Assembly (NCBI GenBank): GCA_038065495.1
Contig: JBBTQW010000001.1
Location: 44,137 to 108,136 of the forward strand
Reading direction: 5' to 3'
DNA: 64,000 nt
DNA from: Patescibacteria group bacterium
GTDB taxonomy: Bacteria > Patescibacteriota > Minisyncoccia > Phycocordibacterales > JACOZG01
The translations under genes and the position numbers were made by a program. Below the pieces are notes generated by a model. The model saw nothing but the letters and a program-made list of their open reading frames with translations. It had not been told where the DNA came from and ran no database searches. Positions within the stretch are counted from its first letter, which is position 1, and every line of letters begins with the position of its first letter. Shown here in pieces: positions 51,135 through 55,765 of the stretch.

Positions 51135-51416
51135 TTAGCGACAGTTAATCGTCGCGCAAACCAAGTTGAGAATACCGATCGCCGAGATCATAATGAAGAG
51201 GCCAATCACACCCCAGAGCACATGCTGGGCGCCCTTCTTGCGCGCCTCCTCATTGGTCTGCTCCGAGAGCATCTCGTACACACCGTAGAGAAAGGTGACA
51301 AAGGCGACGGCCCCCAAGAGTGTAATAATCGGCTTCGCAATTTTATCTACCACCTTATCAAGCACCGGCAAGCCTTTAACAGCTTGGGCATAAGCGACTG
51401 GCCAGAAGTTGGACAT
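51135..51416 (-). CDS. VirB2/TrbC-like (T4SS-pilin-like) small two-TM protein, paralog 1
   Basis: 93 aa. Architecture is leader, TM1, charged loop (EQTNEEARKKGAQH), TM2 (LWGVIGLFIMISAIGIL) and a short tail. Confidence 0.55.
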   Translation of the reverse strand: MSNFWPVAYAQAVKGLPVLDKVVDKIAKPIITLLGAVAFVTFLYGVYEMLSEQTNEEARKKGAQHVLWGVIGLFIMISAIGILNLVCATINCR

Positions 51417-51429
51417 GCTTAATAGCTAA

Positions 51430-51792
51430 CTACTGACGCGGAATCTGAGGCAACGGCTGGCCAGGACCCTGACTATTGCCAAGACGGAAGGTGCCGCCGA
51501 GCAAATTGACTAGACCCCAAACCGAGACCATCACAAAGATCGCGATAATACCATTGATCATCATACTGCGACCGGCGGACTGTGCATCTTCGTCACCAGC
51601 CGACATCACATACTTGAGCACGCCGTAGAGGAAGTAGACCACGGCTAAACCGATGATGAGCGGAATAACGTAAACGTTGATAATCCGGATAATGATCTCA
51701 AAGATTCCCTCCACACTATTCTGCGCTAGCGCGAGCACTGGCAGGGCCAGAGCGGCCAGAGGCACAGCATACTTTTTTACAATCTGTAACAT
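51430..51792 (-). CDS. VirB2/TrbC-like (T4SS-pilin-like) small protein, paralog 2, with signal peptide
   Basis: 120 aa. Signal peptide (AVPLAALALPVLALAQNS), TM1, loop (SAGDEDAQSAGRSMM), TM2 (INGIIAIFVMVSVWGLVNLLGGTF). Confidence 0.6.
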   Translation of the reverse strand: MLQIVKKYAVPLAALALPVLALAQNSVEGIFEIIIRIINVYVIPLIIGLAVVYFLYGVLKYVMSAGDEDAQSAGRSMMINGIIAIFVMVSVWGLVNLLGGTFRLGNSQGPGQPLPQIPRQ

Positions 51793-51868
51793 ATTTTTTA
51801 CTTATTTTACTTCTTATAAACTAATAATAACTAAACTAAGTTGACCCCTAAATTATACTAAACTTGGG

Positions 51869-52153
51869 CTAAGAACCAAAGTAGGGCAATGGCGGCGTGC
51901 TGTTATCTAGCACAAAGGTGCCACCCAGCACATTTACCAAGCCCCACACCGAGATCATCACAAAGAGGCCAATAATCCCGTACAACATCATCTTCCTCCC
52001 CTCTTCTTGCTCTTTGGCATCGCCTGCTTTGCTCATATATTTTAGCACCCCAAGGAGAAAGTAGACAACCGCCGCGCCAATAAATAGCGCAATGAGCGGC
52101 TGCAGAATCGCGTCGGTAAAGAGTTTGACTAAGCCAGCAAAATCTCTAGTCAT
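51869..52153 (-). CDS. VirB2/TrbC-like (T4SS-pilin-like) small protein, paralog 3
   Basis: 94 aa. Clearly paralogous to 51430..51792, sharing ...VVYFLLGVLKYMSKAGDAKEQEEGRKMMLYGIIGLFVMISVWGLVNVLGGTF. Confidence 0.6.
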   Translation of the reverse strand: MTRDFAGLVKLFTDAILQPLIALFIGAAVVYFLLGVLKYMSKAGDAKEQEEGRKMMLYGIIGLFVMISVWGLVNVLGGTFVLDNSTPPLPYFGS

Positions 52154-52180
52154 AATATTTTATATAATTATTTAACAAAA

Positions 52181-52516
52181 TTATTTCAAGCTATTAATCG
52201 TCTGGCCGATGGCAGAAGAAATGATGTACGCACCCAATATAATCGCCGCGCCAATGACCACGCCCAGCAGAGCACGTTTCGCGTCACTCAACTTATCCGG
52301 TGCGCCACGAGCTTGGACGAAGAGGAAACCCACATACACTATCGCCACCACCAGCACCGGCAGGCCCACCTGCACTACAATCTCGAGCAATTTATTTACA
52401 AAATCTTGAATGCTACAAATATTGATCGGATTGCTGATTGGCCCGGAACCGCCGCAGTTGCCTGAGCTTGGACGCGGGATTACATCAGCCGCGTAAACGA
52501 TAAATTGATCTAACAT
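52181..52516 (-). CDS. VirB2/TrbC-like (T4SS-pilin-like) small protein, paralog 4 (Cys pair N-terminal to TM1)
   Basis: 111 aa with NCGGSGPISNPINICSIQDFVNKLLEIVV, TM1, loop (QARGAPDKLSDAKRA) and TM2. Confidence 0.55.
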   Translation of the reverse strand: MLDQFIVYAADVIPRPSSGNCGGSGPISNPINICSIQDFVNKLLEIVVQVGLPVLVVAIVYVGFLFVQARGAPDKLSDAKRALLGVVIGAAIILGAYIISSAIGQTINSLK

Positions 52517-52546
52517 GACGAGTTCATTCTAGCACTTTATTGCTCA

Positions 52547-53011
52547 CTACTGGGGCAAGAAGCTGTGGACAGAGCTCTTGAGCGTATCTTTGGCGAGATA
52601 ATTAAAGATCGTATTGACGATTAGCCACGCGGCCAGCACCAGCGCCAGGCCAATGATCGCCGCCTGCAGGATCTCAATTGCTTGCTTGCGCTTCTCCGGT
52701 TTGGCTGGCTGGCTGGCCATGCCAATGCCGGCATAAGCAATCGCCACGGTGGCCACCGGCACAGCGAGGACAAAAGTAAAATAGTTCACAATATTCTGCA
52801 CAAGCTTAAAGAAGTCATTGGTCTGGCACTCGGCCTGGCCGGGATTGCCGCAAGGCACAATATTACTAGCCACTTGCGCGTGAGTCACCGAAGCCGAAAA
52901 AATTAGCGTGAGGCTAAAAAGTAAAACTAAAGCGAGAACAATAATTCTGCTAAATAAATTATTCATTATTATTTGCCGGCAAGAGATCTTGTAATTGCGC
53001 GCTGGCATCAC
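52547..53011 (-). CDS. VirB2/TrbC-like (T4SS-pilin-like) small protein, paralog 5 (Cys pair; start possibly internal at 52966)
   Basis: 154-aa ORF. A signal/TM is followed by PCGNPGQAECQTNDFFKLVQNIVNYF, TM1, loop (ASQPAKPEKRKQA) and TM2. The upstream 45 nt overlap the SBP-like gene, so the start may be MNNLFSR. Confidence 0.55.
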   Translation of the reverse strand: MMPARNYKISCRQIIMNNLFSRIIVLALVLLFSLTLIFSASVTHAQVASNIVPCGNPGQAECQTNDFFKLVQNIVNYFTFVLAVPVATVAIAYAGIGMASQPAKPEKRKQAIEILQAAIIGLALVLAAWLIVNTIFNYLAKDTLKSSVHSFLPQ

Positions 53012-54284
53012 TCACCGCGCGGCTGGGATCAACGCGGCCAAGCGCAAGCGACTCGGCCATCTGGCGCCAGAGCAGGAGCGTTTTATCCGGTGCCGGATCT
53101 AGCCAGTCGCGGGCAATTACGGCGGCTTGGTAGAGCACACTCTGGTCTGGATCAGCCGGGAGCGTGGCCAGCAAGTCATTACGCGCCGGTGGCAGAGTGG
53201 CCGCCGTGGCAACGAGCGCGGCAAAGTCCGGACCGGAGAGCAAGTTAGCCACGGCTATAGCCGTATTGGGATTGGCCGCGCCGCGAGCGAGGGCGAGGAA
53301 GTGGAAGCGGCCGAGAGTGAGCTGGCGCGATCCGCCCTCACGCTGGGGTGGCGTGGCAATGTAGAAGTTAAGTTGGGGATTCTGCGCAGCTAGGCGGTCG
53401 ATCTCACTGCCCCAGCCCAAGTACATCGCAAGCTTGCCGCGGAGGAAGGCCTCACGCGCCTCGGGTTGAGAACTATTCCACGCATAGAGCGTATTGGCCG
53501 GATCGGTGAAGCGGAGGAAGAAGGCGAGAGCCTCGCTGGCTGGCTGCTGACTAAAACCCAGCGCCTCTTTAAGCGTCACTTTTGGCAACCCGGCCGAGCG
53601 CGCGACAATGGGATTGCCGGCTTGCATAATCAAGAGTGAGAGCAGCTCTTTGGCATTAGAAATATTAGAGAAAGTGCCAAGGGCAATGCCACTCTGGCTG
53701 ATATTGCCGCGGCCATCGGTCTGCGTTAATAATTTGTTCACGGTCGCTAAGTCTTTCCAAGTTCTGGGTACAGACGGCACTTTGGCATTGGCGAGCAAAT
53801 CTTGATTGTAGAAGAGCACAAGTGGATCAACATATACTGGCCAACCATAGACACCGTCCGGACCAAATAATAATTCCCAATCTCGAATATGCGTGCCAAG
53901 CACAAAAGTATCTTTGAAAGTTTGTTTAGAAAATGTTTCGTACGGAATCTGCTGAAGTTTCGCCGCTTGTCTAGTGAGAATATCAGAAGATAAAGTAACT
54001 AAATCCGGTCCGCGGCCCAGCGCTAGCGCTTCGACTAGATCATTCTCTAGCGTCTCGGGATTTTTCTCCACATATACCAGCGAGAACTGGTCTTGGTGTT
54101 CTTGTCGCGCTTTTTCTAGCACGCTATTCAGCCTTTCCGCCGGGATCGTCCCCCACCAGACCACTGTGCCGCCGAGGCCACCCGTGGGCGCGCGGAAGCC
54201 GGGCAAGACACCGGCAAAAACGAGCACGCCCACGAGCAGCGCGACGATAAAAATAGCAATGATAGTGATCTGGAAGCCGTTCAT
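52959..54284 (-). CDS. TM-anchored extracellular solute-binding-protein-like protein (possible ABC SBP family 1), GC-rich
   Basis: 441 aa. A TM anchor is followed by an alpha/beta periplasmic-binding-like sequence (GTVVWWGT..., ...AMYLGWGSE...). Family call is tentative. Confidence 0.5.
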   Translation of the reverse strand: MNGFQITIIAIFIVALLVGVLVFAGVLPGFRAPTGGLGGTVVWWGTIPAERLNSVLEKARQEHQDQFSLVYVEKNPETLENDLVEALALGRGPDLVTLSSDILTRQAAKLQQIPYETFSKQTFKDTFVLGTHIRDWELLFGPDGVYGWPVYVDPLVLFYNQDLLANAKVPSVPRTWKDLATVNKLLTQTDGRGNISQSGIALGTFSNISNAKELLSLLIMQAGNPIVARSAGLPKVTLKEALGFSQQPASEALAFFLRFTDPANTLYAWNSSQPEAREAFLRGKLAMYLGWGSEIDRLAAQNPQLNFYIATPPQREGGSRQLTLGRFHFLALARGAANPNTAIAVANLLSGPDFAALVATAATLPPARNDLLATLPADPDQSVLYQAAVIARDWLDPAPDKTLLLWRQMAESLALGRVDPSRAVSDASAQLQDLLPANNNE

Positions 54285-54823
54285 GATTTTAATTCTTTTA
54301 TTTTAGCAAAAATCAGACCATAATGATGCTCCCCGGCTGGGAAATTTTCTTGGAACTCAAAGCCAGCCTGCGTGGCAATCTCTTTGACCTGATCTGGTTT
54401 AATTATTTTTTCCGTATTTGGTCCGAGATTAGAAAAAGAATCACTCCAGTCTATTACTATTAGTTTTCCATCCGCTTTTAAAATTCTTTTCGCCTCCAAG
54501 AACATGCTATATTTCTGCTCGGACTGGAATAAAATATTCGCTACCAAAACAGCATCTACACTAGCATCTTGCAATTTAGAGCCACCGAGTTTATCCACAT
54601 CGCCCCAGAGATATTTAATATTCGTGACGCGACGAGATTTAGCCTCGTTCGCTAATCTATCTAGCAATTCCTTCTGTACTTCTACTGCATACACCATCCC
54701 GCTATTACCCACGCGCGCCGCCATAGCCAGCGTGTAAGCGCCCGAACCGGCACCAAAGTCGGCGACGCGCGCGCCTTCTCGCAAACCAAAATACGGTACA
54801 TTTTTTTCCGGATCAGAGAACAT
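54281..54823 (-). CDS. class I SAM-dependent methyltransferase
   Basis: 180 aa with the SAM motif VADFGAGSGAYTLAMA and DAVLVANIL motif II. Confidence 0.8.
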   Translation of the reverse strand: MFSDPEKNVPYFGLREGARVADFGAGSGAYTLAMAARVGNSGMVYAVEVQKELLDRLANEAKSRRVTNIKYLWGDVDKLGGSKLQDASVDAVLVANILFQSEQKYSMFLEAKRILKADGKLIVIDWSDSFSNLGPNTEKIIKPDQVKEIATQAGFEFQENFPAGEHHYGLIFAKIKELKS

Positions 54824-54875
54824 GTTGTGGTGAGAATAATTATAACACTAAATCTGATTTAACAGGACAAGTTAC

Positions 54876-55072
54876 CTGTGATAGAATAATTTTCGACAAC
54901 TTAATAGTAAAAGTAGCCTAAACCAGTGAGTAATCACTGGCATGGCGAAAGTCAGTCACGTAATGCACAGAAAACCCATCATGGGGTCGCATTACGTGCC
55001 GTATCGGGAAACCGATACGAGTGGCGCAAGCCACTACCTGTGGTGGGCTTTCTGTTCCTCGCTACAGGTAAT
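54876..55072 (+). ncRNA. candidate structured non-coding RNA or cis-regulatory leader, unknown class
   Basis: Three plus-strand GNRA-capped hairpins: CCAGTGA-GTAA-TCACTGG, CGTATCGG-GAAA-CCGATACG and GTGGC-GCAA-GCCAC. A 10-bp stem CACGTAATGC...GCATTACGTG encloses ACAGAAAACCCATCATGGGGTC. A long-range 8-bp helix pairs TTACCTGT (54877-84) with ACAGGTAA (55065-72). The GCCAC strand can alternatively pair downstream (CCAC-TACCTGT-GGTGG), giving mutually exclusive hairpins. On the minus strand the loops are non-GNRA, so plus orientation is inferred. No ORF with an RBS is present. Confidence 0.4.
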
Positions 55073-55102
55073 TACAAATAAAAACGCAAAAAAAAATAAA
55101 AT

Positions 55103-55765
55103 ATGAAAATAGTGCGAGACCTTACCGTTGAATATAAAAAGAACCCAGTCCAAGCAATAATTGTGTCATTACTCATCCTCCTCGGGTTAATATTTGCGCG
55201 GTACATAACTATTTCCCTAGTTATAATCGTGTACTTAGCGAGAAAGTTTAAGAAAGACGAACGAGAGAAAAAAGACATGAAGAAGAAATGCTCGCATTGT
55301 CAGACAGAAATAACTTGGCTCGCGACAAGGTGTCCGCATTGTCACGGCAAAATGCAAGTATGGACAGCAGATTCAAAAATAGTAGCCACCATCCTAGCCG
55401 TGTCACTTTTTGTAGGAATAGTAAAGATCAGTTCAATGTCATCGAACACTTCTAGCCTAACCAACACATCACCAAGCGCCCCTTCTCAAGAACAAATAAA
55501 CAAAAAGCGAGAAATAGAATCTATTGTTTACGCAAAAGAAGTCATTAAGGAAACACTGAAAGCTCCCTCAACAGCTAAATTCGTTGATGTAAGGAGCTAC
55601 GAACTTTCAAACCAGAAAGATGTTTGGGCGGTAAACGGTTATGTAGATAGCCAAAATAGTTTTGGCGCGATGATAAGAAACATGTGGGAAGTTCAGCTTG
55701 ATTATAGAAACGGAAAAGGAGGGACGGTAAAAAGTATTCTCTTCGACGGAAAGCAGTTACAATAA
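55103..55765 (+). CDS. hypothetical membrane protein with zinc-ribbon (CxxC...CxxC)
   Basis: 220 aa. N-terminal TM, CSHCQTEITWLATRCPHCHG, second TM, and a C-terminal globular domain. Confidence 0.55.
   Translation: MKIVRDLTVEYKKNPVQAIIVSLLILLGLIFARYITISLVIIVYLARKFKKDEREKKDMKKKCSHCQTEITWLATRCPHCHGKMQVWTADSKIVATILAVSLFVGIVKISSMSSNTSSLTNTSPSAPSQEQINKKREIESIVYAKEVIKETLKAPSTAKFVDVRSYELSNQKDVWAVNGYVDSQNSFGAMIRNMWEVQLDYRNGKGGTVKSILFDGKQLQ

Follow-up and report, generated by a model that had tools for sequence, protein, structure and literature searches.

What is the structured element that lies between a methyltransferase gene (54281-54823, minus strand) and a gene starting at 55103 on the plus strand in the DNA analyzed here, a 64,000-nucleotide stretch of contig JBBTQW010000001.1 from a Patescibacteria group bacterium (the window, whose numbering is used throughout)? 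The intergenic gap measures 279 nt. The original prediction, made from the letters alone, had placed in it, at 54876-55072, an unannotated structured RNA with three GNRA tetraloops and mutually exclusive helices, either a riboswitch-like leader of the 55103 gene or an independent small RNA (sRNA), and had recommended an Rfam scan. When the whole window was scanned with the covariance models of Rfam 15, the gap yielded a match to LOOT RNA (RF03000) at 54915-55035 on the plus strand, which scored 89.3 bits against a gathering score of 46.4 (E = 1.3e-15) and was complete, covering model positions 1-121 of 121. This was the single non-tRNA match in the window, and no other Rfam family matched at 54780-55160 at E <= 1. 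The RNA is a canonical LOOT member; it is not new, and belongs to an already catalogued family that the original prediction had not considered. What the comparison adds is the extension of the RNA at both ends, to a 5′ motif and to a 3′ tail with a U-tract, the assignment of its hosts to Patescibacteria or the candidate phyla radiation (CPR), and the placement of many loci in tRNA-integrating serine-recombinase elements. We rate as slightly better than an even bet the proposal that LOOT acts in cis, as a leader whose terminator is conditional and which stands at the head of the accessory-gene slot in Patescibacteria mobile elements.

LOOT hairpins in the window and its relatives

The modeled region consists of four hairpins.

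54915-55035, plus strand: LOOT RNA core with hairpins P1 to P4, located by the RF03000 covariance model
54916-54946, plus strand: P1 hairpin; outer pairs GCC/GGC, inner stem 54923-29/54934-40, loop GUAA; conserved (upper case) in the Rfam consensus
54957-54998, plus strand: P2 hairpin; outer stem of P2a (54957-66) and P2b (54989-98), 22-nt apical region
55000-55019, plus strand: P3 hairpin; CGUAUCGG-GAAA-CCGAUACG, invariant GAAA loop at 55008-11
55020-55035, plus strand: P4 hairpin; (A)GUGGC-GCAA-GCCAC(U), GNRA loop GCAA at 55026-29

In the window, the inner hairpin of P1 reads CCAGUGA-GUAA-UCACUGG (54923-40), and the P1 internal loop is made up of CCUAAAC at 54917-23 and GCAUGG at 54940-45. 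The outer stem of P2 comprises 10 bp, CACGUAAUGC at 54957-66 with GCAUUACGUG at 54989-98, and encloses 22 nt; P2, P3 and P4 stand in tandem with linkers of 0-1 nt. LOOT as modeled in RF03000 has the same CCUAAAC/GCAUGG internal loop in P1, long P2, GAAA-capped P3 and GNRA-capped P4, and the window element shows no difference from it inside the modeled region. The four plus-strand hairpins of the original prediction, with the sequences claimed for them, are P1 to P4 of LOOT, and they covary in 109 relatives.

Relatives were collected by an exact-pattern scan of one genome per GTDB species, which returned at least 119 stretches, 110 of them LOOT by inspection. All 18 relatives that were tested exceeded the Rfam gathering score, at 78-95 bits; E-values from our purpose-built covariance model are rough. 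Across 109 sequences, the paired fraction was 100% for P1, 96.9% for P3 and 96.6% for P4, and the covariation score of the core helices was 0.595 compared with 0.208 in shuffles, a level that none of 500 shuffles attained. In the window itself, the fold surpassed that of shuffled sequences for both 54876-55072 (z = -5.8) and 54896-55057 (z = -6.8), with 0 of 200 shuffles as good.

All three tetraloops have the GNRA form on the plus strand only, as first noted, and G-U pairs are frequent (UG in 81 of 109 sequences at alignment columns 87:166, GU in 47 at columns 78:173). Since G-U pairs would become A-C mismatches on the other strand, and since the GNRA loops are strand-specific, the element is a plus-strand RNA, in agreement with the original claim. 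The same observations bear on an explanation without any RNA, in which the region is a DNA-level inverted-repeat site or a degraded fragment of a protein-coding gene, the latter having been raised in the original prediction itself. The reverse strand does fold better than shuffles (z = -4.8), and short open reading frames (ORFs) of 38-54 amino acids overlap the region. However, this explanation is at odds with the frequent strand-specific G-U pairs and with GNRA loops on one strand, and changes among relatives follow base-pair covariation rather than codon patterns. The covariance-model match is a further point against it; the data contradict this explanation, and we give it practically no credence.

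The LOOT alignment originates from the Weinberg/Breaker ZWD alignments, with Weinberg et al. 2017 (PMC5737381) and Rfam 14 (PMC7779021) as its sources. In the passages that name it, the family is labeled a 'metagenomic-based' RNA from the Weinberg/Breaker alignments (PMC7779021), is cited as an example of unusual covariation (PMC7657543) and is counted among the families improved with R-scape (PMC11701678). The main text of the 2017 discovery paper contains no discussion of LOOT (PMC5737381; its supplement lies outside this statement), and the literature searched, which did not take in that supplement with its possible mention of the 3′ tail, states neither a function nor a host. For such an orphan family, comparison makes a mechanism testable. 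The Rfam model ends at P4, and it omits the 5′ motif, the 3′ tail with its U-tract and the alternative helix described below.

Two incompatible helices under selection

Nearly all loci continue past P4 with ...GGYGGGCUUUUUGU..., and this tail is complementary to the apex of P2.

54967-54985, plus strand: X, the A-tract and P2 apex, ACAGAAAACCCAUCAUGGG; 5′ strand of the alternative long-range helix
55037-55055, plus strand: X′, the conserved 3′ tail, CCUGUGGUGGGCUUUCUGU; outside the Rfam model, pairs with X

The U-tract, UUUCUGUU at 55049-56, is the 3′ part of X′ plus one extra U. Pairing energies were compared between cognate and non-cognate strands of the 109 loci. For the P2 outer stem, cognate P2a:P2b pairs averaged -14.7 kcal/mol and non-cognate pairs -3.1 kcal/mol, with 99% of cognates in the best decile; the stem is represented by 89 distinct strand sequences and retains 9-14 contiguous bp in 107 of 109 loci. 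For X:X′ the corresponding energies were -25.6 and -14.6 kcal/mol, and 89% of cognates lay above the 90th percentile of their own row (the best decile). This helix is 18-22 bp long and leaves ~2-6 nt of the P2 loop unpaired. In a MAFFT alignment of the 109 sequences, 88.1% of X:X′ cells were paired, as opposed to 73.1% after shuffling and 42-52% with slid partners. Compensatory change altered 16 of 18 pairs on both sides, in 308 cells, which 0 of 500 shuffles reached, and G:C swaps occur even within the A-tract:U-tract segment (columns 76:175 and 73:178).

Because a helix of ~20 bp cannot form in the loop closed by P2, the P2 stem and X:X′ are alternative folds, and from this geometry we infer that the P2 outer stem and X:X′ cannot coexist. 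Two incompatible helices are both under selection. The mutual exclusivity of the original prediction holds in this general form, with the P2 stem set against pairing of the P2 apex with the 3′ tail (GUGGUGGGCUUUCUGU), and not in the form originally given, a switch of the 3′ strand of P4 to a downstream GGUGG. The latter pairing is present in the window but is not conserved in relatives (cognate -3.9, non-cognate -4.5 kcal/mol).

The original model also closed the RNA, taken as 54872-55071, with a long-range helix between the octamers UUACCUGU and ACAGGUAA; these had been placed at 54877-84 and 55065-72 and are really at 54872-79 and 55064-71. Over the 109 loci, pairing of the 5′ and 3′ flanks was as strong between non-cognate strands (-14.2 kcal/mol) as between cognate ones (-14.5 kcal/mol), 10% of cognates fell in the best decile, as expected by chance, and the window ranked 29 of 109. 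The 5′ octamer falls within the -35/-10 spacer of the predicted promoter and so before the predicted start, and ACAGGUAA belongs to a local hairpin with 55036-47. Both complementarities that this model invokes do exist in the window. Yet neither is conserved, and better pairings use both partners, ACAGGUAA in the X2 segment (below) with X′ and GGUGG, as part of X′, with X. We judge an RNA built on these two pairings, which are two of the five structural claims of the original prediction, to be very unlikely.

We refer to the Rfam fold with a free tail as fold A and to the fold containing X:X′ as fold B. Fold B is the more stable in 98 of 109 loci, by a mean of 5.5 kcal/mol, and in the window the two folds have energies of -67.4 (B) and -57.0 kcal/mol (A). 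For a transcript terminated at the U-tract (54896-55057), the minimum free energy (MFE) structure is fold B, X:X′ included, at -68.1 kcal/mol. The elements of X:X′ follow one another in a terminator-like order, A-tract, G+C-rich stem and U-tract, with the G+C-rich helix CCCAUCAUGGG/CCUGUGGUGGG followed by C and UUUCUGUU, and at least 5 U in a 9-nt window at the 3′ end of X′ are found in 95 of 109 loci.

A second feature may act on the base of P2. The canonical signature of the 11-nt GAAA-tetraloop receptor is CCUAaG/U.A.GG (PMC2615604). Set against the receptor as 5′-CCUAAG...UAUGG-3′, the P1 internal loop, CCUAAA/CAUGG, agrees at 9 of 11 positions, with the closing G-U replaced by A-C; at one locus (L160) the closing pair is C-U. 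Since our search pattern had fixed the receptor and loop bases, we checked LOOTs found independently, through a neighboring protein, and among these CCUAAA/CAUGG was present in 9 of 10, and the GAAA loop of P3 and a GNRA loop on P4 were each present in all 10. These motifs suggest that the GAAA loop of P3 docks into the P1 internal loop and so clamps the base of P2. The GAAA tetraloop/11-nt receptor of group I and group II introns and RNase P shares the receptor-like loop, with the invariant GAAA of LOOT lying two helices away, and a related contact occurs in the c-di-GMP-I riboswitch.

Promoter, downstream gene and a proposed conditional terminator

LOOT has a consistent position relative to the genes around it. 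The downstream gene is on the same strand at 83 loci and on the opposite strand at 9, most of which still have a same-strand ORF, and the upstream gene is on the opposite strand at 68 loci and on the same strand at 31. The downstream ATG lies a median of 35 nt past X′, and within 60 nt in 89% of loci, a distance too short for a separate promoter of the cargo gene. Orientation and distance together describe the layout of a leader that heads a transcription unit. The corresponding features in the window are as follows.

54859-54887, plus strand: predicted sigma-70-type promoter; -35 box TTAACA at 54859-64, 17-nt spacer, extended -10 box TGa-TAGAAT at 54879-87
54896-54906, plus strand: 5′-terminal motif ACAACUUAAUA; family consensus ACAAYUNAAUA, outside the Rfam model
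55058-55069, plus strand: X2 decoy, CUCGCUACAGGU; pairs with ACCUGUGGUGGG at 55036-47 (A55036 and the 5′ part of X′), with the U-rich stretch in the loop
55103-55765, plus strand: cargo gene (ORF) for a 220-aa membrane protein with a CxxC...CxxC zinc ribbon; starts 47 nt past the U-tract

In a consensus scan the promoter scored 10 of 12 matches plus an upstream TG, and its position places the predicted transcription start at ~54894-96. Of the two roles first suggested, that of a leader of the 55103 gene is the best reading, from the promoter, the orientation and the distance to the ATG. At 60 of 111 loci, compared with 1 of 111 controls, the 5′ motif ACAAYUNAAUA is found in the 60 nt before P1, and in 41 of the 60 a TAnnnT box stands 6-7 nt upstream of it (upstream consensus tg.TA.aaT). 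No pairing partner of the motif was found inside the RNA, the mutual information of its variable positions with every column being at the null level, and counts of trans targets or extra copies were at chance level. An apparent cluster of the motif 0.65-1.2 kb downstream was discarded, as it falls inside unrelated coding sequence. The -10 box of the LOOT promoter is flanked in the window by a direct repeat, GACAAGTTA (54866-74) and GACAACTTA (54895-903); as an operator this repeat was set aside, for it is not general among other loci.

Two kinds of sequence downstream of the tail could compete with the helices described above. In the window, X′ pairs with X2 at -19.3 kcal/mol, compared with -9.2 kcal/mol for shuffles (z = -5.8, the strongest of 109 loci), and z falls below -2 in 24 of 109 loci, so that the X2 decoy is real but facultative; as a universal feature, X′:X2 was rejected by this shuffle test. 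The non-cognate test is uninformative for X′:X2, since X′ sequences recur among loci of one class. For a read-through transcript (54896-55108) the MFE structure is fold A plus the X′:X2 hairpin, at -76.3 kcal/mol. At other loci (L043, L061, L014, L017, L051 and others), near-perfect copies of P2a adjoin the start codon. Such copies reach z < -3 in 9 of 87 loci (about 10%), compared with 4 for the control strand, and none is present in the window; pairing of P2b with a downstream P2a copy was accordingly dropped as a universal feature.

We propose the following mechanism. With a promoter of its own, LOOT would form the 5′ leader of transcripts of the 55103 gene, and this leader would be bistable. 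In fold A, hairpins P1 to P4 form as in Rfam and the GAAA loop of P3, docked in P1, would clamp the base of P2. In fold B, X′ (55037-55) would pair with X (54967-85), opening the outer stem of P2 and placing a G+C-rich helix directly before the U-tract. The outcome would be conditional transcription termination (attenuation). Where fold A is stabilized, polymerase would read through into the gene, whose translation start fold A leaves free; otherwise an RNA of ~160 nt would be released. In read-through RNA of the window, the X2 decoy (55058-69) would capture X′ and restore fold A. At a subset of other loci, the P2a copy at the start codon may add translational control, with the 3′ strand of the opened P2 masking the start. 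Candidates for the signal that sets the balance are a ligand, an ion, a protein or transcription kinetics. Promoter and leader would then constitute a constant module before a variable accessory-gene slot, often on serine-recombinase elements that integrate into tRNA or tmRNA genes.

In several respects this arrangement resembles the terminator-antiterminator platforms of riboswitches and attenuators, with which it has in common two exclusive, maintained helices, one of them with a U-tract, in the 5′ untranslated region (5′-UTR) of a same-strand gene. LOOT differs from these platforms in that the 5′ strand of its putative terminator is the apex of an internal hairpin, in that ~50 nt and two hairpins separate the two strands, and in the heterogeneity of the genes that it would regulate. 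Several phages produce read-through leader RNAs, among them the lambda pR′-6S RNA-tR′ unit, the put RNA of HK022 and the immunity RNAs P4 CI and P1 C4. LOOT is like them in being a short structured RNA made from a strong promoter in the divergent control region of a temperate mobile element, with a terminator before genes, and unlike them in having Patescibacteria as hosts and no sequence or structure similarity to them (no other Rfam match at E <= 1). No antiterminator protein or trans target of LOOT was identified among the loci analyzed.

Much of this evidence could also be read as that of a stand-alone sRNA, trans-acting or structural, such as a regulatory or immunity RNA of a mobile element. 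X:X′ would then be a constitutive terminator and fold B the mature RNA, and the downstream gene would be unrelated and expressed by leak-through. Rfam places LOOT in the class 'Gene; sRNA', the predicted promoter is strong and its own, and the terminated RNA is thermodynamically most stable in fold B. The 5′ motif ACAAYUNAAUA is apparently single-stranded and could serve as a seed, the cargo genes are heterogeneous, and co-resident copies can differ in X:X′. This last point refers to two metagenome-assembled genomes (MAGs), CAZXKC01 (L005 and L054) and CAYODY01 (L016 and L058), each of which carries two LOOTs with quite different X:X′ and P2; such differences could reflect orthogonal specificities of co-resident elements. 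A stand-alone sRNA, however, leaves unexplained why the P2 outer stem is kept in 89 sequences when it is incompatible with fold B, and why gene orientation is so asymmetric (83 vs 9 downstream, 68 vs 31 upstream). The median of 35 nt between tail and ATG leaves no room for a cargo promoter, P2a copies and X2 decoys make sense in read-through transcripts only, and target sites for the 5′ motif did not exceed chance. On this balance we hold a stand-alone sRNA to be unlikely, though it is the alternative to which we give the most weight.

A classical riboswitch for a small molecule or ion would use P1 to P4 as the aptamer, organized by a tetraloop-receptor contact like that of c-di-GMP-I, with the ligand stabilizing P2 and blocking the X:X′ terminator, as an ON switch. 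In its favor are a compact architecture that combines an invariant GAAA loop with a receptor-like one, the mutual exclusivity and near-equal energies of terminator and antiterminator, and the 5′-UTR position of the element before a same-strand gene. In model systems, moreover, the 11-nt receptor contact is Mg2+-dependent (bioRxiv 10.1101/2024.03.11.584472). Among the hallmarks of riboswitches, a structured 5′-UTR domain and, by computation, a helix-excluding expression platform are present, and a function common to the downstream genes is absent. These genes have no metabolic or transport theme, the element travels on mobile elements, and the tertiary motif and the terminator account for most conserved nucleotides, which leaves few positions for a ligand pocket. 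We consider a riboswitch of this kind quite improbable. The description 'riboswitch-like' in the original prediction is borne out as far as it meant a leader with competing helices, and is weakened by the heterogeneous genes and by carriage on mobile elements.

Several points weigh against the conditional-terminator leader that we favor. That X:X′ would terminate transcription is read from its anatomy, and the direction of regulation is inferred as well. Some 50 nt (P2b, P3 and P4) lie between X and X′, compared with 3-8 nt in the loops of canonical terminators, and a consensus terminator scan does not call X:X′, seeing a weak local hairpin of 6 bp only. The downstream genes share no function, so that no regulatory logic can be read from them. 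Both the X2 decoy (24 of 109 loci) and the P2a copy (about 10%) are confined to subsets, and Rfam files LOOT as an sRNA gene. The sample and methods contribute further reservations. The loci are mutually related, so that our shuffle-based statistics overstate independence and are not probabilities; genes were called by a simple ORF heuristic; and the RNAs were selected by a pattern containing the receptor and loop bases, with 10 unbiased instances only.

If attenuation proves true, LOOT would be among the first regulatory RNAs for mobile elements of uncultivated, host-dependent bacteria, and its terminator would be an unusual one, with the upstream strand buried in the loop of an aptamer-like hairpin. 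A broader idea, which we offer tentatively and think rather unlikely, is that LOOT represents an unrecognized RNA-switch class of Patescibacteria temperate elements. It would be either a riboswitch for host state or an RNA-based immunity or lysogeny device, and would gate an accessory slot for superinfection exclusion, defense or surface proteins by means of the P2-apex terminator, with variable X:X′ and P2 conferring orthogonal specificity.

Cargo genes, mobile elements and hosts

The 88 cargo proteins downstream of LOOT are heterogeneous and mostly unannotated, the top Pfam families having no more than 5 members each. They include small membrane or secreted proteins, zinc-ribbon membrane proteins, peptidoglycan-binding proteins, DUF4352 proteins, Ltp-type lipoproteins, nucleases, methylases and a Cap15-like effector. 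A superinfection-exclusion lipoprotein of a temperate Streptococcus phage belongs to the Lipoprotein_Ltp family. At L025, L047 and three related loci the cargo is a Lipoprotein_Ltp protein (PF07553), described in Pfam as a host cell surface-exposed lipoprotein. There are hints here that the LOOT slot carries lysogenic-conversion genes.

Large serine recombinases, ParB-DNA methylases, terminase-like proteins and DUF5659 proteins recur in the neighborhood of LOOT, and at least one mobile-element hallmark gene is present at 51 of 111 loci. At 40 of 111 loci a serine recombinase gene is present in the same 8-kb block, 1-4.5 kb from LOOT; most of these genes are divergent and lie 1.3-4.5 kb upstream. 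At 24 of these 40 loci the recombinase gene has a tRNA or tmRNA gene overlapping its 3′ end or no more than 300 nt from it, which is the signature of an integrated element and marks a tRNA-integrating, prophage-like element family in Patescibacteria. The recombinase gene and a tRNA gene (Asn, Met, Ile, His, Ala, Glu, Ser, Leu or Gln) converge and overlap at their 3′ ends at L001, L002, L007, L012, L014, L024, L025, L037, L038, L040, L053, L054, L064, L083, L093, L106, L110, L111, L113, L114, L116 and others, and at L082 the partner of the recombinase gene is a tmRNA gene. A literature search on Patescibacteria prophages with serine recombinases returned nothing relevant.

We also searched metagenomes with the recombinase as the anchor, using a 6-sequence alignment as the query. 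Of the 80 loci obtained, 10 carried a full LOOT with its tail, upstream of and divergent from the recombinase in 8 of the 10. With a strict pattern, IMG/VR gave one LOOT match, and we therefore rejected LOOT as a common feature of viral contigs. On the matching contig, a ParB-methylase, a serine integrase and a replication initiator are found leftward, and LOOT with three genes rightward, converging on a large terminase.

The window copy has different surroundings. No prophage was found around it: the 64 kb contain neither a recombinase gene nor one for a terminase or ParB-methylase. Its 220-aa cargo protein gave only weak zinc-ribbon matches and is homologous to the proteins downstream of LOOT in L117 (38% identity, 9e-27), L028 and L058, all three of which are mobile-element loci. 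With no element genes and a homologous cargo, the window copy is a solo chromosomal LOOT-plus-cargo cassette.

Among the LOOTs listed, 50 carry explicit Patescibacteria/CPR labels, which include Parcubacteria/Paceibacterota and Levy-, Kaiser-, Uhr-, Nomura-, Taylor-, Vogel-, Roizman-, Doudna-, Andersen- and Peregrinibacteria. A further 27 are labeled 'uncultured Ca. Saccharibacteria' (Ca., Candidatus) and 16 are unclassified. Taxon labels of MAGs are unreliable in part. The 11 'uncultured Gammaproteobacteria' labels were assigned automatically, several of them to single contigs of ~0.8-1.3 Mb, and 5 of the 6 remaining labels belong to contigs shorter than 20 kb. The LOOT core and the first ~70 nt of the 3′ flank are identical in L015 and L031, of which one is on a contig labeled 'Nanoarchaeia archaeon' (DATEAE010000171.1, 7.2 kb) and the other in a Ca. 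Uhrbacteria MAG (MGEI01000005.1); this identity is probably due to a binning error or a shared mobile element.

Two matches to the search pattern in Proteobacteria-labeled MAGs, L036 (7276-7374, minus strand) and L105 (2563-2674, minus strand), are not LOOT. Both carry the same hairpin, GCCUAAAC...GGCAUGG, and after it ...AAAGUCCAGACC... and a GC-rich stretch that includes a GAAA loop. As RNase P RNA they were rejected, since they had no Rfam match at the gathering score.

The wider neighborhood in the window, with gene arrays for pilins of type IV secretion systems (T4SS), solute-binding proteins and gyrA, is consistent with a Patescibacteria chromosome. At 51135-53011 (minus strand), upstream of the methyltransferase gene, an array of five small genes for T4SS_pilin/TrbC-like membrane proteins lies beside a gene for a solute-binding protein.

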